This document shows, piece by piece, positions 17,906 through 35,589 of a DNA stretch of 64,000 bases. A program made the position numbers and the translations under genes. Below the pieces are notes generated by a model, which searched no databases, was not told where the DNA came from, and saw nothing but the letters and a program-made list of their open reading frames with translations. Origin of the DNA: Nitrosopumilaceae archaeon (GTDB taxonomy: Archaea > Thermoproteota > Nitrososphaeria > Nitrososphaerales > Nitrosopumilaceae); contig OZ242274.1 in the NCBI GenBank assembly GCA_965207375.1, forward strand, positions 1,440,001 to 1,504,000, read 5' to 3'. The stretch's first letter is position 1. Every line of letters begins with the position of its first letter.

Positions 17906-18267
17906 GCGCCCAAAAGGTAGCATCGATTTTAGATGCCCTTGTACTTGCCGGAAACGTTGAAACATCACAGCAATTTTTCAAATGCTGTGGTCCCAACTGG
18001 CAAAAGGTTTACAGTCTTTTGTCCCCGGAGGCACAAAAATCACTCAATCCAGATGTATCACATCAAATAAAGATAGACCCAAAAATTGCAGTAAAGGTGT
18101 TCAATGAACTAGCATCTGCACAGCAATATGATACTATCATCATGATGTGCAATTCTAGGATTGGAAACATTGGACGTATCATGAACTTTTGTTCACCTGA
18201 TGCTGTTCGTGTAATCAGCCGTGTCAGACAGACATGGCAAAAAAATGTACAGATTACCTGTACATAG
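17899..18267 (+). CDS. Hypothetical protein
   Basis: 122-aa ORF overlapping the previous stop. Confidence 0.6.
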   Translation: MLSAQKVASILDALVLAGNVETSQQFFKCCGPNWQKVYSLLSPEAQKSLNPDVSHQIKIDPKIAVKVFNELASAQQYDTIIMMCNSRIGNIGRIMNFCSPDAVRVISRVRQTWQKNVQITCT

Positions 18268-18273
18268 GGAAAA

Positions 18274-18396
18274 TCCCACTGATGAGTTTGCCATAGCGAC
18301 ACCGCATGAAGCAAACGCTGGAGTATTCCAGTTGACTGACTCCATCCCGCAGATACGGGGGTTAGTCGAAACATCCTAGTACCAGGATGTCTGGGA
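18274..18396 (+). ncRNA. Hammerhead ribozyme variant 1 (type I, branched stem II)
   Basis: TCCCA-CTGATGA...GAAA-CATCCT/AGGATG-TC^TGGGA; GUC cleavage triplet ending 18391. Confidence 0.75.
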
Positions 18397-18511
18397 AAAA
18401 GAAACACAAATCCTTCCATCCCAGACCTGATGATACCTATACCATCTAATGGTATCTGTAATATCAGGTCAATGAGGGATTTACACAACACAAACAACGG
18501 AGGTTGATATA

Positions 18512-18763
18512 ATGAGTTATACAATCACAAAATACCAAGGAAAATTTGAAACAGCAGAAAACATACCAAAGACAGGCAGACTAGTTACTGCAGAATCTTT
18601 GTTCAAAGAAAAGTCCGCACTCAGAAATGTTGCAGCAGTATTCATACAGCAACAAGAAACAGTATATCTTGTCTCACTACGTGAGATGGTACCAGAAGAC
18701 TCGAAAGTCATCGTAGATGATCAACAAAACATTTGTGCCATACCAGCAGTTGCCGGGGGGTAA
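18512..18763 (+). CDS. Small protein with ubiquitin-like (MoaD/SAMP-type) C-terminus IPAVAGG
   Basis: 83 aa; GGAGGT SD; ends AIPAVAGG*. Confidence 0.65.
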   Translation: MSYTITKYQGKFETAENIPKTGRLVTAESLFKEKSALRNVAAVFIQQQETVYLVSLREMVPEDSKVIVDDQQNICAIPAVAGG

Positions 18764-18813
18764 AACCCCTTGGAAACTCGCAGAGTATCCAATACTGATT
18801 CAAAAGGCAGACA

Positions 18814-18948
18814 ATGCTTTCAGCAACCGGCGCAATAACACGCATCGATTCTGGACGATTTTCTGTAGGTTCGGGAGTAATAGTTGACATCCATGGGTGC
18901 AACTGTCCCGGATACACAAAATGTAGAATCTGCTCACACTTGTTGTGA
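18814..18948 (+). CDS. Short SWIM-zinc-finger-like ORF or fragment
   Basis: GCNCPGYTKCRICSHLL matches CxC-xn-CxH. Confidence 0.35.
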   Translation: MLSATGAITRIDSGRFSVGSGVIVDIHGCNCPGYTKCRICSHLL

Positions 18949-19002
18949 GAAATCTCTTGACACAATACGACACCAACATAATCTAGGAGGAACAACAAGA
19001 AA

Positions 19003-19209
19003 ATGTCCAAAAAAGAACTAGAAAAAATTGTAGAGTTGTACCGCAACTATAACATCGAAAAGATGCACAAACAAAAAATCATAAAGAGTTACACAAATAC
19101 TATCATGGCCATCCTTGAGGTGTGCTCAGAAGAGACCATATCCAAAATCAATGACTGTCTTGAGCAGGAAGAAAAAATACAACCATCACCAATTGGTATT
19201 GTATCATGA
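19003..19209 (+). CDS. Hypothetical protein
   Basis: AGGAGG SD; operonic. Confidence 0.6.
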   Translation: MSKKELEKIVELYRNYNIEKMHKQKIIKSYTNTIMAILEVCSEETISKINDCLEQEEKIQPSPIGIVS

Positions 19210-19781
19210 GTGTAGTATCAACATACAGAAAAGACAATCAAATTTTGGAAATATTTGTAGATGAAGATCCTACAAGTCCAAGAGAATGGGATAATCTAGG
19301 TACAATTATCGCTTATCATCCAGACTATATCCTTGGAGATAAACAAATGGATCTACAGACTGCACAGAATGAATGTAAAAAACATATCAAAACTGCATAT
19401 GTTGCATTGCCATTATACATGCTAGAACATAGCGGTATATGGTTGTCTACTGAAACATTTGTTTGTGACCTCCAGGGCTGGGATACTAGTGCTGTCGGCA
19501 TGATATACTGTACAAAATCAGAGGTAAAGAAAATGCTGCAAGTGGACACCCTAAAATCATCAGACAAAAAAAGAGTAGAACAAATCCTAAAAGAGGAAGT
19601 CGAGGAGTGTGGAGAATATCTAAACGGTGATGTATATGGATACTCTCTAAGTACGGTATCTAAATGCAACCAAGGAATGGAACATCTACATCTTGTCGAC
19701 TCTTGTGGTGGATACTATGGTCAAGAGGGCATAGACTCTATCCTTGAACAAAACGGCGCACAAGATTGGGAGAAGATATAA
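19206..19781 (+). CDS. Conserved phage/ICE-type hypothetical protein
   Basis: SPREWDNLG, LYMLEHSG, WDTSAVG and DSCGGYYG motifs familiar from mobile-element proteins. Confidence 0.7.
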   Translation: MSVVSTYRKDNQILEIFVDEDPTSPREWDNLGTIIAYHPDYILGDKQMDLQTAQNECKKHIKTAYVALPLYMLEHSGIWLSTETFVCDLQGWDTSAVGMIYCTKSEVKKMLQVDTLKSSDKKRVEQILKEEVEECGEYLNGDVYGYSLSTVSKCNQGMEHLHLVDSCGGYYGQEGIDSILEQNGAQDWEKI

Positions 19782-19962
19782 TCATGAGCACCGAATCTCG
19801 GCTCCTTTCACATTCCAAAAAGGAATTGGTAAATCTGCTCATCATGGCAAGTGCCAGGATTTTTACACTACAAAATGAAGTGAATGGGTACCAAACCAAT
19901 TGTAACTGCAAACCAAACACCGGTGACAGATTTGCAGACATTGATAGGGCGTGGAATAAACC

Positions 19963-20175
19963 ATGATTGACCAATATACAATGTATGTAGATCCAAACTA
20001 TTCGTATCTTAAAGTACCTAGAAAGGAACTAATCAAGATGGATGTACTTTCAAAAACCAGCAGTAGGTCATTCAGACGCGGGGCGTGGGTTCTACTAAGA
20101 GAGGGTGCTGACATGAACAGATTCATGAAGCAAAAAGGTCAGGTAGAAATCATAAAAGAGTTCACACTAGTGTGA
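19963..20175 (+). CDS. Hypothetical protein, paralog of 33082-33369
   Basis: DPNYSYLKVP...WVLLREGADM vs DAGHGWLRVP...WVYLEEDLDA. Confidence 0.6.
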   Translation: MIDQYTMYVDPNYSYLKVPRKELIKMDVLSKTSSRSFRRGAWVLLREGADMNRFMKQKGQVEIIKEFTLV

Positions 20176-20312
20176 GGGGGTAAAACCATGGAACAACAAA
20201 TTAAAGAGAAATGTGTATCATGTGGGGATATAGCAACAATCAATATGTTTGGGAGTCACCTGTGTGACACATGTGTTGATTTTGTCAAAATTACCAAAAA
20301 ACCTACAGAAAC

Positions 20313-20615
20313 ATGAATCAACAAACTAGACTGGAAAAACTTGCAAAGTGTCTTGATACTATATTGACAACACCAAAAATCAATGGTACAGTAGACGAGT
20401 TTTACGGATATGAAGAGACACATTCTGGACTCTGGTTAAGTGCTGATGACGGCAACAAAATAGATGACATGTCAGCATTTGATTATCATCTGATGGACTC
20501 TGACGAAAAACAATACGTAATGGGTGTACATAAAAAAATACACGAAATACTTTGTCAACAAAAAGCACATACAGAATATCATGATCCGGCAACGATTATG
20601 ATATATCTGGACTAG
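20313..20615 (+). CDS. Hypothetical protein, paralog of 20817-21296
   Basis: Shared FDY...GVHKK...(EYHDPAT/EWYDAGT). Confidence 0.65.
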   Translation: MNQQTRLEKLAKCLDTILTTPKINGTVDEFYGYEETHSGLWLSADDGNKIDDMSAFDYHLMDSDEKQYVMGVHKKIHEILCQQKAHTEYHDPATIMIYLD

Positions 20616-20623
20616 GTAAAACC

Positions 20624-20866
20624 ATGAAAAACGAACCTACACAAAACACTCAATATGTCAACATGCCAAAGCCACACTCGCTACTAGTATTATCTTGGGA
20701 AGATATTGTATCACAAGCAGATGACATGGACATGAAAATCACAAGAGAGCAATGTATTGAGGTGTTTAACAAAATTATATCATCTAATATGGACTCTATA
20801 ATGGATTCCTTTTGGCATGATATCAGATTTTGGTTGGACACCATACATGACGAAAACAAATTATAA
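20624..20866 (+). CDS. Hypothetical protein
   Basis: 80-aa operonic ORF. Confidence 0.6.
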   Translation: MKNEPTQNTQYVNMPKPHSLLVLSWEDIVSQADDMDMKITREQCIEVFNKIISSNMDSIMDSFWHDIRFWLDTIHDENKL

Positions 20867-21296
20867 AATCACGGAGTTGATGAAATTGAACGGAAAATCA
20901 AAATCCAAACTGGTTGAACCAGAAAGGAATTTAGCAAAACAACGATTGGAAAATCTGAAACAGGATCTAGAAGAGTTTCTAGAGGACCCACAAATTGGCA
21001 TGACCATAGATGAGTGGAGCGGCAGAGCCGAAACATATTATGGTATTGTAATGTCAGGTGAGGGAGGCAATCGGGTTAATGGCATTCCTGGCTTTGACTA
21101 TTATGAGGAATGTGATTATCTGGCAGCAGAGGCTGTAACAGAATTTGGCGGTTCTACACCAGAGACAACATATGACTTTGGAGTCCACAAAAAGCTCAAA
21201 GAGTTTCTTCAAAAAAGAGGAGCAAGTGCAGAATGGTATGATGCAGGGACTGTTCATGTATACTTTGAAGAACCCCGTCAAGCACCAAAAAGATGA
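20817..21296 (+). CDS. Hypothetical protein (true start probably ~20847)
   Basis: Paralog of 20313-20615. Confidence 0.65.
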   Translation: MISDFGWTPYMTKTNYKITELMKLNGKSKSKLVEPERNLAKQRLENLKQDLEEFLEDPQIGMTIDEWSGRAETYYGIVMSGEGGNRVNGIPGFDYYEECDYLAAEAVTEFGGSTPETTYDFGVHKKLKEFLQKRGASAEWYDAGTVHVYFEEPRQAPKR

Positions 21297-21388
21297 ATTG
21301 TAAAACATTCGTAGATAATCTACGATACAATATGTCATGTGAAACATTACTGATATCGGTAGACAATACAAAAAGGAGGTACGATATA

Positions 21389-21649
21389 ATGAACCAAGAA
21401 ATACAAGTGATTAAACCAAAGGTAACATTTGATTTTGATGTACCAGAATCTTACAAAACGGTAAAGGCCTTTACTTTACTGTCTGAAAAAGAATTGCAGA
21501 CATTTAGAGAAAAGGGTGCTGCTCTGATAATATCAGTAGATGGTAAATTCATACCGGTACTGTTACACTCAGATGTACCAACACAAGCAACAGCAGTTCG
21601 TGACACACAAGGAAACCTGTGGGGTATTCCTGCAGTAGCAGGTGGTTAA
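21389..21649 (+). CDS. Second small protein ending IPAVAGG
   Basis: GGAGGT SD before ATG 21389; 86 aa; ends GIPAVAGG*. Confidence 0.65.
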   Translation: MNQEIQVIKPKVTFDFDVPESYKTVKAFTLLSEKELQTFREKGAALIISVDGKFIPVLLHSDVPTQATAVRDTQGNLWGIPAVAGG

Positions 21650-22265
21650 AATGGGATACACCCACTATTATCGCGTTTCAGCAGAGTTTGATGCAGACAA
21701 ATTTTTCAACGTAGCATCTGATTTTAAGAAAATGATAACACCACTCAAACATCTAGGTATATCACTAGGTGACGGTCATGGTGAAAATCATCCTATAATC
21801 ACGCCAAAGGAAATCTGCTTTAACGGCTTGAAAAACTGTGGTCATCAGAAACGACATATTGTGCTGCCATGGCCAGGTGAAAATGCAACAGGAGTTGCTA
21901 CACATGGCACAGATACCAAACTGGTAATAGGAAAAAATACATCATGGTTTGCAGGCCCTCAAATTGAAACTAGGGTATGTAACGGTGATTGCTCCTATGA
22001 GACGTTTTCTCTACAACAGAAATTTGAAAAAATGTACGATGAACAGAGCCCAGAAGCATCCGGTGGTCTATTCTTTGATTTCTGCAAAACAGCCTATAGA
22101 CCATATGACTTGGCAGTAAATACCTGTCTGGTTATAGCACAACATCATTTGGGTCCTGCCATTGAGATATCATCTGATGGAGACATGAATCATTGGGAGG
22201 AATCTATGCAACTTTGTAACCACTTTCTAGGGTTTGGTGCGGACTTTACATTGGGTGGCTCATAA
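21642..22265 (+). CDS. Conserved mobile-element hypothetical protein
   Basis: MGYTHYY, FCKTAYRPYDLAV and ISSDG motifs. Confidence 0.7.
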   Translation: MVKMGYTHYYRVSAEFDADKFFNVASDFKKMITPLKHLGISLGDGHGENHPIITPKEICFNGLKNCGHQKRHIVLPWPGENATGVATHGTDTKLVIGKNTSWFAGPQIETRVCNGDCSYETFSLQQKFEKMYDEQSPEASGGLFFDFCKTAYRPYDLAVNTCLVIAQHHLGPAIEISSDGDMNHWEESMQLCNHFLGFGADFTLGGS

Positions 22266-22753
22266 TGCCAAATTGGTGTTTTAGCAATATTACAATTTCA
22301 GGCACAAAGCAAAGCATCGATGCAATAGCTGCTATCAATCTTGATTTTGAAAAGATTCTTCCTACTCCAAAAGAACTGCTAAAATATAGCAGACACACTA
22401 TAGATGCAGAAATAGAAAAACACAACATTGCAAAATACGGGTTTGTTGACTGGTATGAATGGCGATTACATCACTGGGGTACAAAGTGGTCAGCAGACGT
22501 TCAAGGAGTTAGTAGAGAAGGTGACAAAATCATTCACATCAATATCGTTACCCCCTGGGGGTTACCATATGCAATGTTTAAAAAAATCACAAAAGACTAT
22601 GCCGATGTTACCCTAGAGGTAACTGATTGTGAAGAAGAATCAGGAGCGTTTGTAGGCAATTGCACCTTTAAACGGGGACGGTGTACAATAAACAACATAC
22701 ACGAACCCACAAAGAAGGAACTACGAGAACGTGGTATGTTGGATGAAGAATAA
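22265..22753 (+). CDS. DUF1281/YubB ferredoxin-like protein
   Basis: MPNWC...DFEKILPTP...DWYEWRLHHWGTKW...TPW. Confidence 0.75.
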   Translation: MPNWCFSNITISGTKQSIDAIAAINLDFEKILPTPKELLKYSRHTIDAEIEKHNIAKYGFVDWYEWRLHHWGTKWSADVQGVSREGDKIIHINIVTPWGLPYAMFKKITKDYADVTLEVTDCEEESGAFVGNCTFKRGRCTINNIHEPTKKELRERGMLDEE

Positions 22754-22831
22754 CAACAAAACATGATTGATTGTCTCAAACTCTAAAAACAATATCATTG
22801 TGGTTAACACCCCGATGATGGAGGTGGTACA

Positions 22832-23347
22832 ATGAAAAAAGAAAAAATCAAAAAGGCAGGAGAAGGTATTAAAAAACGAATAATCAAACGACAAAACATC
22901 ATCTATTTCACCCTGATTGGCATCGGTACATCATTTGCTGTTACAACTATATCAGGAACCAAGGATATGACAGGTGAAGCAATAGCCTTTATTATTACCG
23001 GCAGCATAGGTATTATCATGTCATGGACTACAACTGATATTGGTGAGAGTATTAAGGCTGTAATGCGAGAGGTTGGTAGAAATAATCAAAAGATATTGAA
23101 ATCTATAGCCAAATCACAAGATACCCTCGTGTCATGGACTACAACTGATATTGGTGGGAGTATAAGGCAGGAAATGCGGGAGATTAGCAGAGAAAATCAA
23201 ACTATATTGGAATCCCTTACCAAATCACAAGATAGGCTTGCCAAATCTCTTGATGAACTAAAAGAAATTTCCAAAGATGAATTTTCCAAGACACAGCAAG
23301 AAATTTCCAAAGTACATGATGATACAACAAAACTCCTGCAAAAATAG
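22832..23347 (+). CDS. Two-TM coiled-coil protein, divergent family member
   Basis: IAFIITGSIGIIMSWTTTD resembles IAFIIAGFVGLIMSWITAD; internal duplication. Confidence 0.75.
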   Translation: MKKEKIKKAGEGIKKRIIKRQNIIYFTLIGIGTSFAVTTISGTKDMTGEAIAFIITGSIGIIMSWTTTDIGESIKAVMREVGRNNQKILKSIAKSQDTLVSWTTTDIGGSIRQEMREISRENQTILESLTKSQDRLAKSLDELKEISKDEFSKTQQEISKVHDDTTKLLQK

Positions 23348-23374
23348 AATCTACAACCAAAGGAGGTAGATATA

Positions 23375-23893
23375 ATGACAGTTCAAAACTGTATAACTAA
23401 AGCCGCCCATAATCTGGGTGTAACATTAGAAGAACACACACCTACGGCCGTTACAGGCCTTATAAGCAAAATAAAACATGGGGGTCAAATGATTGAAAAA
23501 GGCCCATACAAATATGACGTACAGAGTGTAATGACTTTGGGTCATTTACCTGATACTGTACTTGTAGTATCACAGATGAGCGGTGGTGCAGTAACTGGGA
23601 CACAGTATTTCATAAACACCACATATTTGATTGCGCAAAACATGCGAAACGGTCAAAGTGATGCCGGATTGCGCAGAAGCAGGGGATTTTCCATAGATAA
23701 AAATGATCTTGATTCTCTGATAGAGACCCTGCAAAACATACGTGATGGCAAGTGTGGTCACTATTTTGTATGTGCCACCTGCACTGGAGGAAAATCAAAG
23801 ATTGTACTGCATCATAAACAAAATGCAAATGACCAAGAGATTTGTCCAAAAAGTACAGAACAGAGTTCAGGAAGCTCATTTGTGATAGAGTGA
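23375..23893 (+). CDS. Hypothetical protein
   Basis: GGAGGT SD; 172 aa. Confidence 0.65.
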   Translation: MTVQNCITKAAHNLGVTLEEHTPTAVTGLISKIKHGGQMIEKGPYKYDVQSVMTLGHLPDTVLVVSQMSGGAVTGTQYFINTTYLIAQNMRNGQSDAGLRRSRGFSIDKNDLDSLIETLQNIRDGKCGHYFVCATCTGGKSKIVLHHKQNANDQEICPKSTEQSSGSSFVIE

Positions 23894-23897
23894 TACC

Positions 23898-24560
23898 ATG
23901 AATCCTAACACGAAAATACTAGAGGAAAGAGAGGAGCTGCTGATAATTGATGACGGCAATGGTATAACCACCATTCCAAAATCTGATTATTACCTACTGC
24001 GAATCAAATACTATAACGGCAATAGAATATTTTACGACTGGGGCACAGATGATGCAACAGTAAAAGAAACATACAATGATGGAATATTCAACTGCTGGCT
24101 TGAAGGCAGACAGGTTCAGATAGCAGATGCAAGTGGTGTATCTAGTGCCATTTTAAATCAGAATGTCAAATCATACAAACAACTCTTTGAGAAATGGTTT
24201 GAGGTGACAGCCCAAGAGGCAGTCATAGACATGCTACTTGAAAAACACATCACCCGTGTAGCCAAGACCAAAGCCGGATACGAGATAGACGGAGTATTTA
24301 TGGTAAACAAACATGGTGTGTCACATTGTATAGAAAACGAAAAGTGGAGACACTTGTGTCTTGTTGCAGTAAGCACACCTTCCATGAGTATAGTTGTCCG
24401 AAATCTGGGTCGCGTCAAAATAAACCCGATAACGTCAACCATAATGGCCAAGATAAACTTTCTGTTAAATCCAAACATGAAAGATAGAGTGTTTACCAGC
24501 CAGCTTACAGAACAATGCAAAAGACATCTCAAACATACGTATCAGGAGGTAAAACAATGA
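23898..24560 (+). CDS. Hypothetical protein
   Basis: 220-aa operonic ORF. Confidence 0.7.
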   Translation: MNPNTKILEEREELLIIDDGNGITTIPKSDYYLLRIKYYNGNRIFYDWGTDDATVKETYNDGIFNCWLEGRQVQIADASGVSSAILNQNVKSYKQLFEKWFEVTAQEAVIDMLLEKHITRVAKTKAGYEIDGVFMVNKHGVSHCIENEKWRHLCLVAVSTPSMSIVVRNLGRVKINPITSTIMAKINFLLNPNMKDRVFTSQLTEQCKRHLKHTYQEVKQ

Positions 24561-25394
24561 ACAAGACAAGAATCAAAAAGACAAAACCGCAAGAATTTAC
24601 CTTTGAGGATGAAACCAGAGACTGTACAGATATTGATGGTACACAAGAGCCGTATGATTGGACAGAGCAAGGCAGAGAAAATCACGCCCTGAAACCATGT
24701 AAAACTTGTAGAGACGAGACAATACAATGAAAACACAATATGTAATTACAGAAATGGATACATTGGAAAATAAAAAATGGTAAAATCACGTCTAGTTTAC
24801 AGTCTTGCCAAAGTTTCAAAATGTATTCAAAATGAAATCTACTATTTGGTATCTGTCAAGGCCAAGTCAATATGGAATGGCTGTGATACCTGATACAAGC
24901 AAGATGATTGGATAGACCCGCCCCGGATACTGGGCCAATCTATACTATACATGATGATATTACATTCATCTCTGGTTTTCATTGTGAAAAAACAGTACAA
25001 AAATGGTTTGACTGGCAATCTAGGAGGTAATTTCAATGGACATCAATGTAACAAACAGAGACATACAAAAAGCAATTGAGACAAAGGCCAAACTTGCAAC
25101 ACTGATATCAAGACACAACAAACTTGTCAGGCTTCAGTATCGCAGGGGCAATTCACAATGATCATCTATAGATGTAATTCTTGTGAATATATCTCCAGTC
25201 AATGGCGCAAGGCACAACACCATGTAAAACACACCAAACATTCTGGATTTTTTGAAGATGTTATCGGCAGTTAATGGAAAATACACAAATCAAAAAGAAA
25301 TTTGCAATGATGCAAAAAATCCAAAAAATGGGGAGGGGCCATATTTGGTCTATTTTGGCCCTTAAATACAAAAGTAATCACTGGAGATGATAAA

Positions 25395-25916
25395 ATGACC
25401 ATAACAACTATAGCACAAGCAAAAGCAAATCTAAAAGGAAGCATAGAGGCAACCGTAATACAAGAGACTCAGATCAAAGAGGGTCAAACAAACGGTAAAT
25501 CGTGGAAAAACAAACGCTACACATTACAGGATGATACCGATACGGTACAAATCACGTTATGGGGAAATGACGTTGACCTGTTAAAAATGAATTACAGATA
25601 CAAACTGACAGGCGGTTGGTGGAAGGAGTTTAGCGGTACAGTACAGTTAGATGCAGGCAAATATCTTAAAATCCAACAGATAGGTGCACCTGCAAATGAA
25701 GCCGTACAGAATATACCAGATATAAAAAACATATTTGCTGATTACTTTGAACCCAAAGTCAAGGGTATAATTGAGGCACAAACAGAAAATCTATACGCCA
25801 TACATTATGCCGTACTAGACAAACTAAAACAGTATGAGCAAGCTCCGGACCCACAACTAGTGCAATTGTTTACCCGAATTATTTACGGTAATCTTGAAGC
25901 TGCAAGACGAAAATAG
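25395..25916 (+). CDS. OB-fold single-stranded DNA-binding protein (RPA/SSB-like)
   Basis: LQDDTDTVQITLWG...GGWWKEFSGTVQL archaeal SSB pattern. Confidence 0.85.
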   Translation: MTITTIAQAKANLKGSIEATVIQETQIKEGQTNGKSWKNKRYTLQDDTDTVQITLWGNDVDLLKMNYRYKLTGGWWKEFSGTVQLDAGKYLKIQQIGAPANEAVQNIPDIKNIFADYFEPKVKGIIEAQTENLYAIHYAVLDKLKQYEQAPDPQLVQLFTRIIYGNLEAARRK

Positions 25917-25937
25917 TTTTCCAAAAAGGAGGAGAAA

Positions 25938-26204
25938 ATGAAAAATACAGTAATGAAATTTGTCCATGTAAAATGTATGGACTGCCCGTATGATGACTAT
26001 ATCTGCATAGCACAACCAGGACATTTGGCAGTAGGCCAGATTATACATCTTGGAGAAAAATGCTACTGCGGTTCATATCGAGTACGGGTAATAGGACATG
26101 ATGGTTTAAAGGCAGTAGAACACAACTATGCCAAATGTGGACTGCCATTTGACCGTGAAGAATTTTTAGATAGCATAAAGTCACAGATGCTTGAAAACCA
26201 ATGA
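25938..26204 (+). CDS. Zn-ribbon hypothetical protein
   Basis: CMDC...CYCGS; AGGAGG SD. Confidence 0.6.
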   Translation: MKNTVMKFVHVKCMDCPYDDYICIAQPGHLAVGQIIHLGEKCYCGSYRVRVIGHDGLKAVEHNYAKCGLPFDREEFLDSIKSQMLENQ

Positions 26205-26815: not shown

Positions 26816-26866
26816 ATTCAGGTAAACTATGGAATACAGAATTGTCCTAGATGGGATCACGATATA

Positions 26867-27202
26867 ATGGAATATCCAGACAAACTGAGTGATTCCCAAA
26901 AGCTGGTATTTGTCAAAACCATGTCAGAAAAAATGCATTACAAACTGTCTACAATGACAGTTGGTGACATTAAAAATTTCTGGAATAATACTGACAGTAA
27001 CATAAGAAAACTGTTACTGTATGTGTCACTTGACAAAAAGTTTGTAACGAAGCTCTGTCACAAACATGCCGATTCGCTCAAAGATTTAGTCAGAGATGTA
27101 ACTATACATGATTGGAATGATTCCAAGTATAAAGACGTCTTTGATCTAGATGAGATATTTGGCAAAATAGCGATACAAGACTGCGATTTACCGTACAGGT
27201 AA
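26867..27202 (+). CDS. Hypothetical protein
   Basis: 111-aa operonic ORF. Confidence 0.6.
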   Translation: MEYPDKLSDSQKLVFVKTMSEKMHYKLSTMTVGDIKNFWNNTDSNIRKLLLYVSLDKKFVTKLCHKHADSLKDLVRDVTIHDWNDSKYKDVFDLDEIFGKIAIQDCDLPYR

Positions 27203-27211
27203 GGAGGTATC

Positions 27212-28042: not shown

Positions 28043-28602
28043 AAACAAAAATTCCAAAAGAAATACCCAAAGTACAACACACTACGACTCAAATTCCAAA
28101 CGATGTTGCCTTAACATGTGCACAATGTGACAAAAGTTTGATAAAAGGAACAGAGCCCATCTATGTTATACAGACAGAAAACAAAGATATTTTCTATCTT
28201 TGCAAACCCTGTGTTCAAATATGTGCAGAGAGGGCAAATACATGAATGTCAAAGAAATCCTAAAACTGACACAAGAGGTAAAAATCAAACCTCGTGCGAC
28301 ACTTGAAGAGGCCGTTATTAATTTAACAATCCAAAATGAAACCTTGAAAAAAGCCTTGATTGAACTCCAACTAAAATTACAGGATTCAAAAAAATGGTTT
28401 AATGCAAAAGAGTTTTCTAATCTGGATGATGAATTGGAGAATGTCAAAGCATGACCTTTGATGAAATTATCGAAGACATTGATTGGAAACTACAGAATCT
28501 ACTAGAGACTCTAGACGGTGCAAAGTTCAAAGAGGAAATAGAAAAGGCAAGAGAGCAACTAGATACCATCTTGGTAAATATTCATTATGGTGACGAGATA
28601 CA

Positions 28603-28809
28603 ATGAGTCATAATTTATCCGGATGTAACGGCAACGCATTTGCAATAATGAGTAGAACGTCTAAACTGTTACGAGATGCAGGTGTATCAGAAAAAGAAAT
28701 TGATGATATTATACAGCAAGCAAAAAGCCGAGACTATGACAATCTGTTAAGGGTCTGCATTGTATCACTTGACAAACACCTGACAGGTGATTCAAAAAAT
28801 GCTAGTTAA
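28603..28809 (+). CDS. Conserved small mobile-element protein
   Basis: GNAFAIM...DYDNLL motif. Confidence 0.65.
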   Translation: MSHNLSGCNGNAFAIMSRTSKLLRDAGVSEKEIDDIIQQAKSRDYDNLLRVCIVSLDKHLTGDSKNAS

Positions 28810-29788
28810 TTATACAAAATACTCTTTACTGTCGTAAATGTTCAAAACGACAGGAAAAGGGTATCTGGTGTCCACAATGCAACAGCCGTCTAAGAAATTC
28901 TAGGAGGTTTAAACGAGATGCCCAGTTACGATGATGAATCCTTGCATTCTCGATGCAAAAAGTGGTTTACACCAAAGCGCATGTGGTGTCCTGACTGTAA
29001 ATGTCGCTGTAGAAACGGACCTCGTGATAAATGGAAGAAACAAAAATTTGAGCAGAGAATGTCTCAAAACGACAAGCCAAAATGAGGCAGTAAAATCTGG
29101 AAAAATCAAAATGGAGGAGATATAATGACAAACCATAAAACAACACCAGTGATAACTCTTTGATTCGAGTACTTTCAAGGGAGCCTTTTCGCTCTTGTGG
29201 CAAAGATTATTTCAGAATAGGGGGCCATCTGATTGAGGCTGAATCAATGTCTGATTTGGCAATTAAATTAGATGATACAGATGATTATCCAAAATGCCCC
29301 GATTGTCATGGTAGTGTCATCTGGGCAGAAGCAGGAAATTCATCTGGTACTTGCATGTGCAAGGACTGTGACAGTTACTTTGCAGATTCGGCACATCATG
29401 CAAAAAAAGATAAACTATAATCACAAAGGAGGAAAAATGAACACACAATATCCAGACGAGATCCCAAATGATTGCACATTGTGGGAATCAGGTTGGGACA
29501 AAATAGTCATCATAGATGATGAAAATCTCTCAAACAAAGAAAAGATACAACACATCAAAAAGGCAGCAAAAGAATGTGGTGGTCAGATATATACACTGAC
29601 TGATTTTACAGATGAGACCGACAGCTACCTGTTTTCAAAAGGTATACGGTTTTCAAACCGACTCGATACATACATGGTAGTATACAGACACAACTACACA
29701 GTATGTCATGAATGCTAAAATTACATCCTGTCATGAACCCACAAGTAGAACAAACAATATCCATTATCGAATCTTTTTTTAAGTAGAT

Positions 29789-29935
29789 ATGGACATAAAG
29801 AACATGACAAATGCAGAAGAGATAGATGACTTGACTCTAGAGGAGATCAAGGCCATTGATGACTATTATGCAGACGATACAAACAAGATAGTATTCAATA
29901 CCGCGGAAGAACTTATCCGTTGGTTAAATGAGTGA
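29789..29935 (+). CDS. Putative short antitoxin
   Basis: MDIKNMTNAEE...FNTAEELIRWLNE*; acidic; overlaps the toxin start. Confidence 0.55.
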   Translation: MDIKNMTNAEEIDDLTLEEIKAIDDYYADDTNKIVFNTAEELIRWLNE

Positions 29936-30206
29936 CACATGAAAGTGGAGATTTAAAATCAAAACACAGTTCAAAAAACAATACAAACGCCTTGATGGTA
30001 CAATCCAGAAAAAAGCAAACCAAGCAATATTAGAGATTCGAAATTCAGAAAATCCAGTATATCTTGGAAAATACAAGCAAAGTAAAGGGGTATTCACATA
30101 CGAGATTGGAACCAAATATCGCATCATGTACAGTATAGACTGGAGTAATCACACCGTAGAAATTCTCTGTGTATGTGATCACAAATCAGTTTATGGTAAG
30201 GATTGA
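29928..30206 (+). pseudogene. RelE/ParE-family toxin with in-frame TGA at codon 5
   Basis: MSDT*KWRFKIKTQFKKQYKRLD...YRIMYSID...EILCVCDHKSVY. Confidence 0.75.
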
Positions 30207-30296
30207 GACTATCCTCTCTGATAAACCTAGACTGATTCAATCCCCGTTAATACCACGAGTAATTCGACACTGAAAAGTTATACTAGGAGGTAGAAA

Positions 30297-30707
30297 ATGA
30301 GCAAACTAGAAACTGACATTGAGGATCTCAGAACACAGGTCCTAACCATTGGAAAAACAATAGAAAAAGGTACAACACACAAACTCGAAAGGCCGTTTAT
30401 TGATAGTATCATATGTACCCTGCAATACTTTGGAGCAGATGATGCACAACTGAAAATGGCATCATTTGATCTGCACTTTGCAAAATACAAGATATACGAC
30501 TGGCTTGCAATGTGCTGTAACGGCCGAATGGGTGATGACCCTGCAGTACAGCTTGTCATATACAATATGGCAAAACTGTACATTACACAAAAAAATGTAG
30601 GAGGTTTTGCATGGTGGCTCCGTGGTCACGACCTAGACGTTGAGGCACCTGCAAGATGTCAAGACTGTATAGAATCATACAAAAACTGGAAGGAGGAGAT
30701 ACAATGA
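30297..30707 (+). CDS. Hypothetical protein
   Basis: AGGAGGT SD; 136 aa. Confidence 0.65.
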   Translation: MSKLETDIEDLRTQVLTIGKTIEKGTTHKLERPFIDSIICTLQYFGADDAQLKMASFDLHFAKYKIYDWLAMCCNGRMGDDPAVQLVIYNMAKLYITQKNVGGFAWWLRGHDLDVEAPARCQDCIESYKNWKEEIQ

Positions 30708-32764
30708 GTGTAAAAATATCAAAACCCGTAATTAGAGAAGAAAAGGCATGCGAAACAGGCCTTGATGTATCATATGCAGAAAAGCTAAACCAGGCAGTGG
30801 GAACAGACGGACTTATCCCTGTACAACTCGAACAAGACGTCATTATCAGCAGGATTTCACATGACCTGTATGCCAATCCACAGTCAGGTGTAAGGGAATT
30901 ACTTGCAAATGAAATCAGGGCATGTCAGGAGACTGCATCAGAACATGACGCAAAACCACGTATCGAGGTATCTATAAACCATCAAAATCGAGAGTTTGTC
31001 ATACACGGTATAGATTCCAAGGGTATCGAGCAAGAAAGATTCCTAGAAGTTCTAGCAGTCCTTGGACGCAGTGACAACTTTGACCGTAGCAAGCCCGGAC
31101 AATTTGGCATGGGATTTGCCTCATATACCTGTCTGTCTGATATTGTTTTTATCGAGACATTTGCTAGAAACGGCGACAAGTACAGCGTCATGGGAAAGGG
31201 TGGCATGGGATTTCAAATCCTAGACAAGCCAGAGATGACACATTACGGAACAAAACTCCGCATGACTTTGAACAAAAAGGTCGACATTGATAAAATAACA
31301 AAAACCATAGAGGCATGTGCAACGTTACACGGTATACCTACAACACTAAACGTGACAGAAACATCTGGAATCACAAGATGTGTTGTTATACAACAAAGGA
31401 AACTAGAGGACTTTGTAAATACCCAAACTACCACAAACTCTGAGAGAAAACATCGTACACATCATGCAGTAACACTTGAAAACGAAAACATCGCAGCCTG
31501 TATGCGGTTTTCAAAGCATGGTCATTATGGTACACCAAAGATACATACATTTCTAGCAGGTATGCCAATAGAATTTACCTACACTGGTAAACATGGTGGC
31601 ATCGTTGAATTGGCAATCAACGTCAAAAGAGAGGATATTTTTACACCAACACCAGACAGAGAAAGATTCACAGAAGAATCATCAAGCCTGATAAGAAAAG
31701 AGTTAGATGGATTAGTAGATGCAAAAATCTCTGAAATAAAGGTAAAAGGGATTTCAGAGTATATTGAAAATCCAGAGACCATATTGATTGATGGTGCAGG
31801 TGGAAACATTGAGATTGATGAACAAACACTAGACATCTCAAGACTAGTCAATCGGAGCCGTCATACAAATGAGCGTGATAACTGGATACGTCTAAACGAC
31901 ATAAAAGACATACAAAAGTGCCTTGTCACAAAGTCACTTACAGCAAAAAAGATAGCAGCAGTCAGAAACTATGATTCTGAAATTAACGTAGTTAGAGCAG
32001 ACGATAACACTGACTATGAAAACATGATGTATCATGGACTGACAGACCTAAACGCATACATCAAAAACCACAAAATAAAGGTGGATAACACCAAGAGCAA
32101 AAAACGAATGCGTGTATTCTACCTCCAACCGTACTCTTATGGAAGATACAAGGAAACTTGTACCTCAGATGATCTTCCAGAGGGGACGATCATAGTAGGT
32201 GATGCATTTGATGTATTGTGTGGCATTGCAGCGATACAGCGGGGAGTAAATGACACTTACCACCTTGCTGTAAAGGCTAAAACTGCATCAAGTGGAATTA
32301 CTTTGGAGCAGTTTATACATGAATCAGGCAGATATCTATACAACACCAATATTGGCATAATGACTGCTGCACAAATACGAGACTGCAAAAAACCTGTGGT
32401 AATAACAGACCAGACCTTTGGGAGTCTATTTGGTTCACATAAAATCATAGTGAGGAAAAACCAATATGCTTTCAGACTCGCAGTCGTATTGAATAACCAA
32501 TTCCAGGATCATATACTGTATCGTGATCTCACACCAGAAAACATCAATCAGTTACAGTTGATGTTTCCAAACAAAAATCTAAAAGATCACACAGATGGCA
32601 AAACACTAGACATGATAAACTATACGCCATACATACAAAGTGACATCATCAAAAAATACATACCGCGTTTGTTTGATTTGACATCTTACTATCAAGAATC
32701 GATGCTTGAGGTGCTGATGAAAATGGACAAAGAAATCATGGCTTTAAAAAAAGACCATGAATGA
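30704..32764 (+). CDS. GHKL (Hsp90-like, phage rIIA-like) ATPase-domain protein
   Basis: LYANPQSGVRELLAN, DSKGI, GQFGMGF and GTKL GHKL motifs. Confidence 0.8.
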   Translation: MSVKISKPVIREEKACETGLDVSYAEKLNQAVGTDGLIPVQLEQDVIISRISHDLYANPQSGVRELLANEIRACQETASEHDAKPRIEVSINHQNREFVIHGIDSKGIEQERFLEVLAVLGRSDNFDRSKPGQFGMGFASYTCLSDIVFIETFARNGDKYSVMGKGGMGFQILDKPEMTHYGTKLRMTLNKKVDIDKITKTIEACATLHGIPTTLNVTETSGITRCVVIQQRKLEDFVNTQTTTNSERKHRTHHAVTLENENIAACMRFSKHGHYGTPKIHTFLAGMPIEFTYTGKHGGIVELAINVKREDIFTPTPDRERFTEESSSLIRKELDGLVDAKISEIKVKGISEYIENPETILIDGAGGNIEIDEQTLDISRLVNRSRHTNERDNWIRLNDIKDIQKCLVTKSLTAKKIAAVRNYDSEINVVRADDNTDYENMMYHGLTDLNAYIKNHKIKVDNTKSKKRMRVFYLQPYSYGRYKETCTSDDLPEGTIIVGDAFDVLCGIAAIQRGVNDTYHLAVKAKTASSGITLEQFIHESGRYLYNTNIGIMTAAQIRDCKKPVVITDQTFGSLFGSHKIIVRKNQYAFRLAVVLNNQFQDHILYRDLTPENINQLQLMFPNKNLKDHTDGKTLDMINYTPYIQSDIIKKYIPRLFDLTSYYQESMLEVLMKMDKEIMALKKDHE

Positions 32765-33081
32765 AACCGGAATAAAACTTTGGGCAATTACTACAACAGA
32801 CAAAAAACATACAGATAGAGGCTGACATCCTTGCAGGGTCGTACAAGTCAACAATACTCAAACTGTGCACATATCTCAAGTCGATAAAGCCTATACGGGA
32901 GATAAAAATGCGTGATACTTGGATGTCGTATCTGTTGTATGGTACAACAGACTATACCAAAGATATTTGCAAGTCCGAGATATCGGCACATCAACATGTC
33001 TTGTTGCATTCAAGCTGAATGTACAGACTACATCTGTGAGAAGATACGTATCCCAATTTCCTGAAACTAGGAGGTAATCTA

Positions 33082-33369
33082 ATGGAAAAAATACACTACT
33101 ATGCAGACGCAGGCCATGGCTGGCTCAGAGTACCTGTAATAGAACTGATACATTTGAAAATACACAAAAAGATAACTATACACTCGTACATGAGAGGCAG
33201 ATGGGTATATCTTGAAGAGGATCTTGATGCAGTAACCTACCTTGATGCAGTAAAATTACGCCCTAAAATTGTACAGCATGTATCAGATGGTTTTAGCACA
33301 ATACGCAAATTTGATTCGTTTAATGTAGAGAATTGGTTACAAAAAAACGAATTGGAGGTTATATCATGA
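33082..33369 (+). CDS. Conserved phage-type hypothetical protein
   Basis: DAGHGWLRV...YLEEDLDA. Confidence 0.7.
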   Translation: MEKIHYYADAGHGWLRVPVIELIHLKIHKKITIHSYMRGRWVYLEEDLDAVTYLDAVKLRPKIVQHVSDGFSTIRKFDSFNVENWLQKNELEVIS

Positions 33370-33620
33370 CTGAAATGAACAAAAACGGTATAGTACAGTA
33401 TTTACACTGTGCAAAATGTATGCAAGAGATTCCAGATGGCTGCGTGCCTGCACTGTATCAGCGTGTCAATGTCGGATTTACCGTCAAAGGACTCCAGATA
33501 TGGTGTGTACGTCACGGAATCAATGTACTGCATGTGGACTTTGAGGGTGTAAAACATCCTGTAGACCTTACTGCTGGCAAGCCAGAAATGCCTGAATCTG
33601 TCTGTGAGGAACTCAGATGA
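33366..33620 (+). CDS. Conserved hypothetical protein
   Basis: HCAKC...GFTVKGLQIWCVRH. Confidence 0.65.
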   Translation: MTEMNKNGIVQYLHCAKCMQEIPDGCVPALYQRVNVGFTVKGLQIWCVRHGINVLHVDFEGVKHPVDLTAGKPEMPESVCEELR

Positions 33621-34066
33621 GTCCTGACAGGATACCAGATGAGTCTGAAAAAAGGACTCGAAAAGAAAAGATCAGAGACCATGCAGAGGTAATCATCAAA
33701 AGGCCCATGGGTTGGTTGTTTATGGTGTTTGTGTACTTTGGGACATTTCTGATTATAATTGATGCCCCAAATACATGGCCTATAATGCAGGATCTACCCA
33801 TATTCGGTGTCTTTATTATTCCAGGGTTCGTAGGAGTAATCATGTTGCTGGTAACAAAGCAAGAGGTTAGAGAGATACGCGGTCGTTTTACCAACATAGA
33901 TGCAAAACTTGATAAAATTGATACAAGGCTTGAGAATATCGAGAAAACAATGGATACAAGGCTTGAGAATATCGAGAAAACAATGGATACAAGGCTTGGT
34001 ACAATAGAAAAGACACTCGTCTCAATGTATCATTTGTTAGATGAACGTCTGCCAAAACGTGTATAG
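33617..34066 (+). CDS. Two-TM protein with coiled-coil tail
   Basis: Two hydrophobic helices; DTRLENIEKTM repeats. Confidence 0.75.
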   Translation: MSPDRIPDESEKRTRKEKIRDHAEVIIKRPMGWLFMVFVYFGTFLIIIDAPNTWPIMQDLPIFGVFIIPGFVGVIMLLVTKQEVREIRGRFTNIDAKLDKIDTRLENIEKTMDTRLENIEKTMDTRLGTIEKTLVSMYHLLDERLPKRV

Positions 34067-34070
34067 GTGA

Positions 34071-34370
34071 ATGTTTATGCTGTTACTGACACAAAAAGAG
34101 GTTAGAGAGATACGCGGTCGTTTTACCAACATAGATGTAAAACTTGAAAACATCGAGAAAACACTGGACACAAGGCTTGGTAGTATGGATACAAGGCTTG
34201 GTAGTATGGATACAAGGCTTGGTAGTATGGATACAAGGCTTGGTAGTATGGATACAAGGCTTGGTAGTATGGATACAAGGCTTGGTAGTATGGATACAAG
34301 GCTTGAGAATATTGAAAAGACACTCGTCTCAATGTATCATTTGTTAGATGAACGTCTGCCAAAACAATGA
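34071..34370 (+). CDS. Tandem paralog lacking TM helices, with expanded heptads
   Basis: Six 21-bp repeats (GSMDTRL) at 34171-34305. Confidence 0.65.
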   Translation: MFMLLLTQKEVREIRGRFTNIDVKLENIEKTLDTRLGSMDTRLGSMDTRLGSMDTRLGSMDTRLGSMDTRLGSMDTRLENIEKTLVSMYHLLDERLPKQ

Positions 34371-34694
34371 CGTTATCTGCAAAGATACTTGTCAAAATTT
34401 TTGAAAGATTAACAGAACCCAAATCAAAGAGAGCACTCAGACGGCTATACAAAGAAAGCAGTCAAGCAGGAAGAAAGGCGTGACTATACAGCACACCACA
34501 AACAAAAAAAATCCTAGAATCATTTCCAAAAGTGGCTGATACTTATGACACAAGTATCTGCACATTTGTAATGGTTCTAGACAATTTAAAACAAAACAAA
34601 TGCGAGCAATTAATCAAGCTCGTACTACATGGTGGAGGAGATGCAAAAAAGGCACTACAATTTAGTGCTGTATACTCCAACCATAGCAGGGAAA

Positions 34695-34880
34695 TCCCCC
34701 TGATGAATTTGTGATATTGTACTGTTCTCTGAAAAATGGGAATTACATGTCATAAATGCTCCGTGAATCTAACACGGGGTTGACCGGGTCCTATATAGGG
34801 TCTGTGTCGAAACTCAAAGATGTATTTTACATCGGTGCAGTATCAGATGTTTTACATCTGTACTGCCTTTGAGTCGGGGA
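34695..34880 (+). ncRNA. Hammerhead ribozyme variant 2 (type I, branched stem II)
   Basis: TCCCC-CTGATGA...GAAA-CTCAAAG/CTTTGAG-TC^GGGGA; GUC triplet ending 34875. Confidence 0.75.
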
Positions 34881-35589
34881 AACAAAACACCAAAATCTCT
34901 TCTATCTGTATCGTCTTGAGAAACAATGATGATTTCGTCAGGGGCGACCTGAAAACAGATGGGGTGTTTCCCCCAGATTAAACGGCATAGTCGTCAAAAA
35001 TAAAAATAATAGTATCTGTTAACGTTGTTTTGAATTTATGATATTCTAGGCATGAAATTACTTTGTCAAAAGATAGAATAAAAATTTAGAGGTGACGTTA
35101 ACACTTATGGTACATCTATTATTTTTAGGACATGATTTCCATGCTTCTGTGTACCCTTACCCAAATCAACACCGTTGACACATCTACTGTTGGCTCTTAC
35201 ACTGTAACATACAGCTGTACTGATGATACAGGAAACGCCGCAGTACTGCAGGTTCGTAACGTAAATGTAATTTCGGTACCTGATATGCCAACTAATCTCG
35301 TAGCTGTTGCAGAAAATATGCGTGTCTTACTATCTTGGATTGCACCAATTGATAATGGTGGCTCACCTATAACAGGATATATGATACACCACAAGACATC
35401 AACAGATCCATGGCCTGGTACGGTATCTATTGTAAATAATGTCACATCCTATGTCGTACCGAATCTGACCAATGACATACAGTATGATTTCAGAATTAAC
35501 GCAACAAATGACGCAGGAACAGGTGTATCCTTTAATATTGTTAGTGTAACATTGGAATGGACTAGCTCCAAATCTGTATTTAAAAAAAC

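Follow-up and report, generated by a model that had tools for sequence, protein, structure and literature searches.

The window analysed here, a stretch of 64,000 nucleotides from a Nitrosopumilaceae archaeon, carries two copies of a structured RNA. Copies of this RNA occupy intergenic spacers of integrated mobile elements, where the genes on either side run in the same direction, and copy 1 begins directly past the stop codon of its upstream gene. The element carries PolB, D5-like primase, ArdC-like and ParB-like genes, and no phage structural genes are recognisable. The neighbouring genes and the parts of both copies are as follows (MFE, minimum free energy fold).

17899-18267, + strand: upstream gene, 122 aa; a homologue precedes the putative ribozyme in genomes G001 (43% identity) and G004 (43%)
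18267-18273, + strand: copy 1, 5' flank GGGAAAA, overlapping the upstream gene stop TAG (18265-18267)
18274-18278, + strand: copy 1, stem I 5' strand UCCCA, paired with 18392-18396 in the MFE
18279-18285, + strand: copy 1, core C3 U4 G5 A6 U7 G8 A9 (CUGAUGA), unpaired junction strand in the MFE
18286-18316, + strand: copy 1, inserted hairpin P2a (MFE; 8/12 pairs covary in the 15 copies)
18317-18332, + strand: copy 1, inserted hairpin P2b (MFE; invariant base G.U / C-G / U.G(A))
18333, + strand: copy 1, junction U between P2b and P2c (invariant, alignment column 123)
18334-18367, + strand: copy 1, P2c, read as canonical stem II (G10.1 = 18334, C11.1 = 18367)
18368-18370, + strand: copy 1, core G12 A13 A14 (invariant)
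18371-18390, + strand: copy 1, stem III (A15.1 = 18371, U16.1 = 18390; MFE)
18391, + strand: copy 1, C17; cleavage predicted at 18391/18392 by hammerhead numbering
18392-18396, + strand: copy 1, stem I 3' strand UGGGA (MFE)
18512-18763, + strand: downstream gene, 83 aa; a homologue follows the putative ribozyme in G001
30656-32764, + strand: 702-aa gene of the same element; homologue in G529 (tblastn, 34% over 411 aa, E 7e-64)
34688-34694, + strand: copy 2, 5' flank AGGGAAA (sequence)
34695-34699, + strand: copy 2, stem I 5' strand UCCCC, partner 34876-34880 (MFE)
34700-34706, + strand: copy 2, core CUGAUGA (sequence, MFE, alignment)
34707-34757, + strand: copy 2, inserted hairpin P2a, long form (MFE, comparison with copy 1)
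34758-34780, + strand: copy 2, inserted hairpin P2b (MFE, comparison with copy 1)
34781, + strand: copy 2, invariant junction U (alignment)
34782-34808, + strand: copy 2, P2c, read as stem II (MFE, pair counts)
34809-34811, + strand: copy 2, core G12 A13 A14 (alignment)
34812-34874, + strand: copy 2, branched stem III with two distal hairpins (MFE)
34875, + strand: copy 2, C17; cleavage predicted at 34875/34876 by hammerhead numbering
34876-34880, + strand: copy 2, stem I 3' strand GGGGA (MFE)

The sequence and coordinates that an earlier note on this DNA had given for both copies hold at 18267-18400 and 34688-34884 (+), and an independent descriptor script recovered 18274-18396 and 34695-34880 exactly (G000:C1:1458274-1458396 and 1474695-1474880). 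Unconstrained MFE folds reproduced the five-helix junction that the note had drawn for each, at -49.6 kcal/mol for copy 1 (z -4.66) and -73.9 kcal/mol for copy 2 (z -6.44), with 0/200 shuffles as stable in either case. The unpaired junction strands of both copies are all hammerhead core (CUGANGA, GAA, H17) plus one inserted U. A covariance model built on copy 1 only matched copy 2 end to end in the 64-kb window with 29.4 bits (E 2.3e-7), and the runner-up match reached just 9.4 bits. Between the two copies, both sides have changed in 16 of 43 pairs while 98.8% of cells are paired, against just 28-44% in a slid-partner control. Since a loose core-only descriptor gave 63 matches across the 4.3-Mb assembly, the core letters by themselves are no evidence; the evidence for both copies is homology and covariation.

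A covariance model search for relatives, which the note had proposed, found 14 further copies that share the architecture. In a structural alignment, 15 copies from 11 archaeal genomes of two families aligned end to end, and the copy in G001 was matched at E 1.1e-20. The host archaea are ammonia oxidisers and belong to Nitrosopumilaceae and one further family. A 16th copy comes from a third family, where it lies on a short contig (G897); it combines a stem I of 5 bp and a stem III of 10 bp, the latter enclosing about 180 nt, with the same P2a/P2b/U/P2c junction and the hammerhead core strand. Standard pairs make up 94.9% of 533 pair cells in the 15 copies (40-53% with slid partners), and compensatory change on both sides occurs in 27/43 pairs, with 0/500 shuffles matching any measure; these counts come from an alignment fitted to the model's structure and are therefore biased towards pairing. 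Covariation is present in all five helices (2/5 pairs in stem I, 8/12 in P2a, 3/6 in P2b, 5/9 and 4/4 in P2c, and 5/7 in stem III), which upholds the claim that topology was kept while the stems diverged. The 15 copies include many close relatives (about 89% identity inside f10 subtypes) and represent perhaps seven or eight independent lineages. The orthologous copies of G000 and G001 are 68% identical (91/134 columns); no similarity is detectable in the spacer outside them, and identity between the flanking proteins is 43-44%. P2a forms GAAA tetraloop-like hairpins in f10 and has other loops in the copies of genus g1.

The 25 invariant columns of the alignment include C3 U4 G5 A6 G8 A9 and G12 A13 A14, together with the pairs A15.1-U16.1, C15.2-G16.2 and G10.1-C11.1. 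Within the core, variation is confined to N7 (U in 8 copies, C in 5, A in 2) and H17 (C in 13, A in 2, never G), the positions where known hammerheads tolerate change. All 15 copies have the CUGANGA strand between stem I and stem II, the G12 A13 A14 strand between stem II and stem III and the A15.1-U16.1 pair closing stem III, and the nucleotide at the predicted cleavage site is non-G in every one. The complete hammerhead core that had been claimed for both window copies is thus confirmed, and the five-way junction is conserved too.

The proposal that three hairpins replace stem II did not stand, as P2c keeps the canonical G10.1-C11.1 pair in 15/15 copies. The G-C closure of P2c (columns 124-190) is the reason why we read P2c as the canonical stem II; its next pair covaries (G-C in 11 copies, A-U in 3, G-U in 1). 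P2a is disfavoured as stem II, its first pair being standard in just 5/15 copies. In no copy does A9 run directly into position 10.1: P2a, P2b and a U intervene, which gives a five-way junction at the core instead of a three-way one. The RNA is more simply described as a putative hammerhead with P2a, P2b and the U inserted between A9 and G10.1; its catalytic nucleotides are all canonical, as are the predicted stems I, II (P2c) and III. Neither the junction U nor the base of P2b (G.U, C-G, U.G) varies in 15/15 copies, and the surrounding helices covary. Stem I is open, loopless and 4-5 bp long, so that the usual tertiary contact between stem I and stem II cannot form, and no conserved complementarity was seen by eye.

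The C box inside CUGAUGA prompted us to consider an archaeal C/D box sRNA (k-turn RNA). This was ruled out by the lack of a CUGA D box: in all copies, GUC or GUA, without CUGA, precedes the 3' strand of stem I. Rfam snoRNA matches on both window copies were at chance level.

No Rfam model matched any copy: the hammerhead models left both window copies unmatched at gathering score and at E up to 10, a scan of the full assembly with RF00163, again to E 10, gave no hammerhead match, and at four other loci there was none at E up to 1. The literature searched describes no hammerhead with such a two-hairpin core insertion and no ribozyme from mobile elements of ammonia-oxidising archaea. The earlier note knew of no described hammerhead with this five-way junction, which agrees with Rfam and the literature searched, and the architecture is, judged from sequence comparison, a previously undescribed one within the known hammerhead class.

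The copies share with type I hammerheads (RF00163 Hammerhead_1 and its clan) the core CUGANGA / GAA / A15.1-U16.1 / H17, the G10.1-C11.1 closure of stem II, a GUC or GUA triplet and the location of both ends in stem I. They differ in the additional 47-75 nt or so (two hairpins and U) between A9 and G10.1, which create the five-way junction, in the 4-5 bp, loopless stem I and in being unmatched by the Rfam hammerhead models. The chrysanthemum chlorotic mottle viroid hammerhead reportedly has an extra core nucleotide between A9 and G10.1, a finding ascribed to De la Pena and Flores in 2001. Natural hammerheads accept extra nucleotides at backbone protrusions of the core, and their stem II may consist of one or two pairs or begin with U-U (Perreault et al. 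2011; PMC3088659). Such insertions are of 1-2 nt, whereas that of the archaeal copies comprises two hairpins that are structured, covary and have an invariant base. Hammerheads of the non-circularly permuted kind (type SGC / HRIMA-1; PMC10085705) place the conserved core in a connectivity missed by standard models; there the core blocks are reordered and pseudoknots occur, whereas the archaeal copies have the canonical order with extra helices. Engineered aptazymes (PMC2777235) likewise have an extra folded domain that adjoins stem II near the core, although the domain sits at the distal end of stem II, whereas the archaeal form is natural and inserted in the strand beside stem II.

Taken together, the copies are probably type I hammerhead self-cleaving ribozymes of a new architecture, with self-cleavage predicted from the conserved core. 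We infer that they are most likely transcribed within polycistronic RNA, and that self-cleavage of such transcripts is their likely role. In the folded RNA, C17 would supply the attacking 2'-OH, and the phosphate that follows it (after 18391 in copy 1, after 34875 in copy 2) would be the target. The cut would leave the upstream RNA with a compact ribozyme fold and a 2',3'-cyclic phosphate at its end and the downstream RNA with a 5'-OH at its start, so that the flanking messages would no longer share one fate. Because stem I has no loop with which to reach stem II, the P2a-P2b module with its wobble-rich invariant base may serve as a tertiary brace that replaces loop-loop contacts or pseudoknots.

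The genomic setting is consistent with such a role. The putative ribozymes are co-oriented with the flanking ORFs in all copies whose neighbours were examined. In G004, a homologue of the 83-aa gene sits between two copies, and in G529, which belongs to another family, the homologue of the 702-aa gene lies a few genes upstream of a copy. The two copies flanking one gene and the co-orientation match the pattern published for prophages, where hammerheads flank genes (Perreault et al. 2011; PMC3088659): as there, the copies are intergenic, co-oriented with genes and present more than once per element. The archaeal setting differs in its ammonia-oxidising hosts and in its element, in which PolB, D5-like primase, ArdC-like and ParB-like genes take the place of any recognisable genes for phage structure.

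The literature searched treats the hammerhead as a three-way junction with fixed connectivity round the core. A selected two-hairpin insert beside A9/G10.1 would show that a large domain can be accommodated, or put to use, in this region of the core. Structural biology would gain a new tertiary means of bringing stems I and II into alignment, and engineering a natural entry point for regulatory domains. Moreover, standard covariance models and annotation pipelines would be missing whole hammerhead lineages.

A hammerhead whose cleavage is conditional is unlikely but has some points in its favour. The P2a/P2b/P2c four-way junction would sense a small molecule, protein, ion or temperature and pick between two coaxial stackings, only one of which would set P2c under the G12-A9 and A13-G8 pairs; the mobile elements would thus cut their own transcripts only in a particular cellular condition. 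Four-way junctions with zero or one unpaired nucleotide between helices can swap stacking partners, and this one has zero or one. The P2b base and junction U, invariant amid covarying helices, are under more constraint than a passive spacer needs, and engineered allosteric hammerheads carry aptamers at stem II (PMC2777235). However, the distal parts of P2a, P2b and P2c and their loops vary strongly among subfamilies, leaving no conserved pocket past the junction; Rfam riboswitch models did not match the two copies or the four other loci, and the neighbouring genes give no metabolic hint. A 2009 review (PMC2777235) names glmS as the only natural allosteric ribozyme, and by that account a gated form would be the second natural kind of allosteric self-cleaving ribozyme and the first based on the hammerhead.

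It is rather improbable that the 5' and 3' flanks keep the ribozyme inactive by pairing with its core or with the strands of stem I until they are displaced, for example by a ribosome or ongoing transcription. The earlier note had suggested such a switch; the GGGA(A)AAUCCC, UCCCA (18419-18423) and UUUCCCC (34967-34973) sequences are indeed present, but the switch is not class-wide and is weakly supported. With native flanks, the nearest-neighbour model favours folds without stem I in 3/3 copies, placing the active fold at +3.0, +7.8 and +4.5 kcal/mol, although alternatives beat any 5-bp stem in long-context MFE predictions. A 20-nt native leader lowers the stem I probability to 0.001 in copy 2 and 0.005 in G001 (0/60 shuffled leaders as low), but leaves it at 0.81 in copy 1, where 20% of shuffles are as low; the effect of 60-nt downstream flanks is indistinguishable from that of shuffled ones (shuffles are as low in 12%, 32% and 82% of cases). 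The stop codon upstream of copy 1 overlaps the 5' flank, so a terminating ribosome would cover it. The upstream GGGAAAAUCCC motif is restricted to one genus, which accounts for 5 copies; the 5' flanks of the remaining 10 are different, and among the 15 copies GGRAAAAU is conserved in the five of g1 alone. GGGAAAA is likewise confined to g1 and did not covary when the G004 stem I became UUCCA/UGGAA, and the 5' flanks of f10 copies are unrelated.

There is little chance that the copies are dead hammerhead derivatives, structured RNAs with another role such as a protein site, RNA stability or a recombination or boundary signal. The insertion sits in the core beside A9/G10.1, which we take to be the catalytic metal-binding site of hammerheads, and could slow or block catalysis; moreover, no hammerhead model scores the copies, and f10 inter-genome similarity stops near the 3' end of the element, as it might at a cassette boundary. 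Against this, eleven catalytic nucleotides are invariant across two or three families while 27/43 pairs change, and a scaffold would not limit variation to N7 and a non-G at position 17. Finally, the 63 loose-descriptor sites would suit a chance likeness to the hammerhead consensus in two hairpin clusters that are intergenic and unrelated. This explanation has next to no probability left, being refuted by the E-values from the covariance models (copy 2, 2.3e-7; G001 copy, 1.1e-20), synteny, the 15-copy alignment and its covariation.

The two window copies on which the comparison rests are:

Copy 1: window 18267-18400, + strand, predicted hammerhead ribozyme in an intergenic spacer
Copy 2: window 34688-34884, + strand, predicted hammerhead ribozyme in an intergenic spacer

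When re-read, the sequence of both stretches agreed with the earlier note, coordinates included. When a descriptor script searched the 4.3-Mb assembly for stem I, CUGANGA, GAAA, stem III and UH, its matches included precisely 18274-18396 and 34695-34880, but these were two of 63 loose matches (61 others), so the core letters by themselves prove little. Unconstrained folding reproduced for each copy the five-helix junction drawn earlier, in which three consecutive hairpins (P2a, P2b and P2c) stand between the core strands CUGAUGA and GAA. The minimum free energy was -49.6 kcal/mol for copy 1 (z -4.66) and -73.9 kcal/mol for copy 2 (z -6.44), each equalled by none of 200 shuffles, and in both predicted folds the junction has no unpaired strands other than CUGAUGA, a single U, GAA and C. 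R1, a covariance model for which copy 1 was the only input, aligned to copy 2 over all 134 model positions in a search of the window, with 29.4 bits and an E-value of 2.3e-7; the runner-up within the window reached 9.4 bits. In the alignment of the two copies, 98.8% of cells pair, against 28-44% in the slid-partner control, and both sides differ in 16 of 43 pairs.

Relatives were found in three archaeal families. A third copy, in G001, a genome of the same genus (g1), scores 88.6 bits with R2, the covariance model made from copies 1 and 2. It is flanked by homologues of copy 1's two neighbour genes (43% and 44% protein identity) and matches copy 1 in 91 of 134 columns; the remaining spacer has no detectable similarity, and the G001 copy is thus an island of similarity inside a diverged spacer. 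A pattern search over 401 genomes of the family detected two copies in G004, again of genus g1, which score 60.5 and 59.3 bits when the model is given the locus. They have stem I UUCCA/UGGAA and the cleavage triplet GUA. Between them lies a gene homologous to the 83-aa gene of the window, and the first copy is preceded by a homologue of the window's 122-aa gene. Pattern searches of 401 genomes of the order and 97 genomes of a second family, f10, yielded ten further copies in eight f10 genomes, seven of genus g36 and one of g75; with filters off, R2 aligned each end to end at 14.4-26.1 bits. At phylum level, a pattern search of 401 sampled genomes gave one more copy, in G897 of a third family (f27); its stem I has 5 bp, and its stem III, of 10 bp, closes about 180 nt. 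It is the sole match among 32 f27 genomes, and its taxonomic placement is tentative because the contig is 1.8 kb long and comes from an 86%-complete genome bin. Homologues with covariation, whose absence the earlier note had named as part of the grounds for abandoning its reading, therefore exist: 15 aligned copies, copies 1 and 2 among them, plus that of G897.

Pairs were counted on the alignment of 15 copies (A10). Standard pairs occupy 94.9% of 533 cells, and changes on both sides occur in 27 of 43 pairs (92 cells), statistics to be read with the caution that A10 was fitted to the model. None of 500 shuffles reached any of these measures, and slid partners paired in 40-53% of cells. Covarying pairs are present in stem I (2/5), P2a (8/12), P2b (3/6), stem III (5/7) and P2c (5/9, plus 4/4 in its distal part). 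The copies are often close kin, about 89% identical within f10 subtypes, and we put the number of independent lineages at seven or eight. A check partly independent of the model used three copies aligned plainly with MAFFT; copy 2 is mis-aligned there, and RNAalifold recovered stem I, P2a, P2b and P2c. Twenty-five columns of A10 are invariant.

Invariant positions in the 15-copy alignment A10 (standard hammerhead numbering)
Stem I: one C, two G
Core strand: C3 U4 G5 A6 G8 A9
Base of P2b: GCU and GU
Junction: U
P2c: G10.1, one G, C11.1
Core strand: G12 A13 A14
Stem III: A15.1 C15.2, G16.2 U16.1

Position N7 is U in eight copies, C in five and A in two, and H17 is C in 13, A in two and never G. 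Judged from sequence, these invariances and the variation at N7 and H17 are the hammerhead rule set, which strands of such lengths would match by chance an estimated once in ten million. The core is invariant over lineages whose helices have been rewritten, which argues for selection on catalytic function.

The earlier note had described stem II as replaced by three hairpins. The three-hairpin junction stands, but the replacement does not. All 15 copies have G-C as the first pair of P2c, and the second covaries (G-C 11, A-U 3, G-U 1), whereas the first pair of P2a is standard in 5 of 15 copies and has U opposite U in the other 10. P2c is therefore read as the canonical stem II, and the element as a putative hammerhead whose A9 and G10.1 are separated by an insertion of P2a, P2b and a U. 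It may instead be that P2a is stem II and that P2b and P2c are inserted before G12, a topologically equivalent arrangement in which the pair at the base of stem II would be standard in a third of the copies. Zero or one unpaired nucleotide separates the helices, so that the core's G.A pairs, P2a, P2b and P2c form a near-perfect four-way junction, in which coaxial stacking in pairs could place P2c under the core. One viroid hammerhead reportedly has an additional nucleotide in its core, between A9 and G10.1. Natural hammerhead variants described in PMC3088659 (section 8) accept small insertions at points where the backbone protrudes and can have a minimal stem II.

No Rfam family matches the copies in the window, with RF00163 on the assembly, or at four other loci. 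In article full text, no hammerhead with a multi-hairpin or structured core insertion and none from Thaumarchaeota was found; such variants could be in Dataset S1 of PMC3088659 or the supplements of PMC10085705. To the extent of that full text, the five-way-junction hammerhead is undescribed, as had been supposed. The closest described departures from the canonical form are single-nucleotide core insertions and the non-circular permutations presented in PMC10085705; the window copies carry a structured insertion instead. They show every sequence-defined feature of the hammerhead class and depart from it in their connectivity, which is not a three-way junction, and in matching no existing model. 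By those features we assign them to a putative new form of the known class, and they are probably active self-cleaving hammerheads. The earlier interpretation was largely right, but its account of stem II needs refining and its switch is lost.

That switch was to arise from an upstream GGGA(A)AAUCCC and a downstream complement competing for stem I. In three copies with native flanks, the predicted minimum free energy structure lacks stem I and is more stable than the active fold by 3.0, 7.8 and 4.5 kcal/mol. A 20-nt leader lowers the probability of stem I to 0.001-0.005 in copy 2 and the G001 copy (0 of 60 shuffles as low), but leaves it at 0.81 in copy 1, and the effect of downstream flanks is not distinguishable from that of shuffles. 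The GGGAAAA flank occurs in genus g1 only, does not covary with the changed stem I of G004, and is replaced by other flanks in f10 copies. A switch is thus possible in some copies and is not a property of the class. The boldest reading of the element is a different one, a natural gated hammerhead, which we consider unlikely. In one f10 subtype (L200, L202, L203, L230, L234, L235, L236), the real core is directly preceded on its 5' side by another CUGAWGAUUC(C/U)C, which resembles a partial tandem copy of the core and the start of P2a.

Copies 1 and 2 both lie between + strand genes, copy 1 starting at the stop codon of the 122-aa gene. The 60 kb around them is an integrated mobile element, with genes for transposases, a D5-like primase, PolB, a helicase, methylases and ParB-like, ArdC-like and SNase-like proteins. 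The G001 contig is syntenic with the window from 16.6 to 33.6 kb. In G529, an f10 genome, a ribozyme locus adjoining a restriction-modification system codes for homologues of two window proteins, one of 702 aa (34% identity, E 7e-64) and one of 220 aa. The ribozyme therefore recurs as a component of one family of archaeal mobile elements. Self-cleavage of a polycistronic RNA would be its most economical function, and has been proposed for prophage hammerheads flanking genes (PMC3088659). Excision of the 16.5-kb RNA between copies 1 and 2 was rejected because it is not conserved: a filter-free search of the syntenic G001 contig still gave a single copy.

The 702-aa protein (window 30656-32764) is kept in related elements (42% identity in G001, 34% in G529). 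It matches no Pfam or PHROG family, its sole other signal being a weak similarity to the HSP90/HtpG-like N-terminal ATPase (E 0.0024, PDB sequence search). A search for RNA runs carrying the locus gave none. Contigs from four public runs of one other study (X4-X7) contain a relative of the element over window 16-35.5 kb, about 90% identical overall and mostly 90-95%; it differs by a 52-nt deletion at 22763-22814 and by several small indels. At 35003-35106 these contigs show very high depth and numerous loose ends, the pattern that a repeat boundary should give. Between genomes, the f10 loci L200-L204 are about 89% similar in nucleotide sequence over the ribozyme and the genes upstream of it; in several pairs this similarity ends at or near the 3' end of the ribozyme, which may mark the border of a cassette or element.

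The homologue searches differed in reach. Genome searches with the RNA model matched G001 alone and overlooked the G004 copies even with G004 named, copies that score about 60 bits at the locus, so their no-match results are weak; unlike the G001 copy, those of G004, f10 and G897 all came from pattern searches. Other pattern matches in the order, f10 and phylum genomes lacked YGCU...GGUUGR after a hairpin and were rejected by eye on their first 80 letters, and a pattern allowing two-base mismatches gave chance matches in G006 and G028 and nothing else. In IMG/VR, two patterns matched 17 and 21 stretches, all coding or chance by eye, and the f10-type pattern had 0 matches. The strict pattern had 0 matches in metagenome contigs and the relaxed one at least 117, of which, among the 117 listed, seven passed a weak stem test and none had the ribozyme architecture; both were fitted to the g1 form (GTTGAC...GTCGAAAC) and are blind to the f10 form, so this negative is narrow. 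Searching by neighbour proteins returned the G001 contig and no other among genome contigs, no match among viral contigs, and two already known proteins only from the protein database. Phage records gave no blastn match to either copy's region. At gathering score, Rfam matched nothing in the whole window except a tRNA at 4064-4135, and permissive scans of both copies and four other loci gave chance-level snoRNA, miRNA and RT-RNA matches only.

Several sequences near the copies deserve mention. Between copy 1 and the next gene, window 18425-18474 forms a long perfect-stem hairpin (GACCUGAUGAUACC...GGUAUC...AUCAGGUC) that contains another CUGAUGA. A weak Rfam match to the archaeal C/D box sRNA family sR35 (24.3 bits, cut-off 60, E 0.0005) lies at 34922-34979 (+), 47 nt 3' of the cleavage site predicted for copy 2; it may represent a small guide RNA that the ribozyme releases, or a chance match. 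Ig-like and fn3 domains are encoded in 35132-35593 and an Ig-like domain again in 37069-37650; a surface-protein gene (35132-35593, 36031-37068, 37069-37650) appears to be split by an IS66-family transposase.

The window lies on contig C1 of a four-contig assembly. The other contigs, C2, C3 and C4, have 22-30% of their length in stop-free frames of at least 100 codons, against 85% for C1, and have repeats in common. They contain type I hammerheads of canonical appearance, such as C4:449765-449839 (20.8 bits with RF00163, under the cut-off of 34), and seem to be eukaryote-like rather than archaeal DNA that was binned together with the archaeal chromosome.
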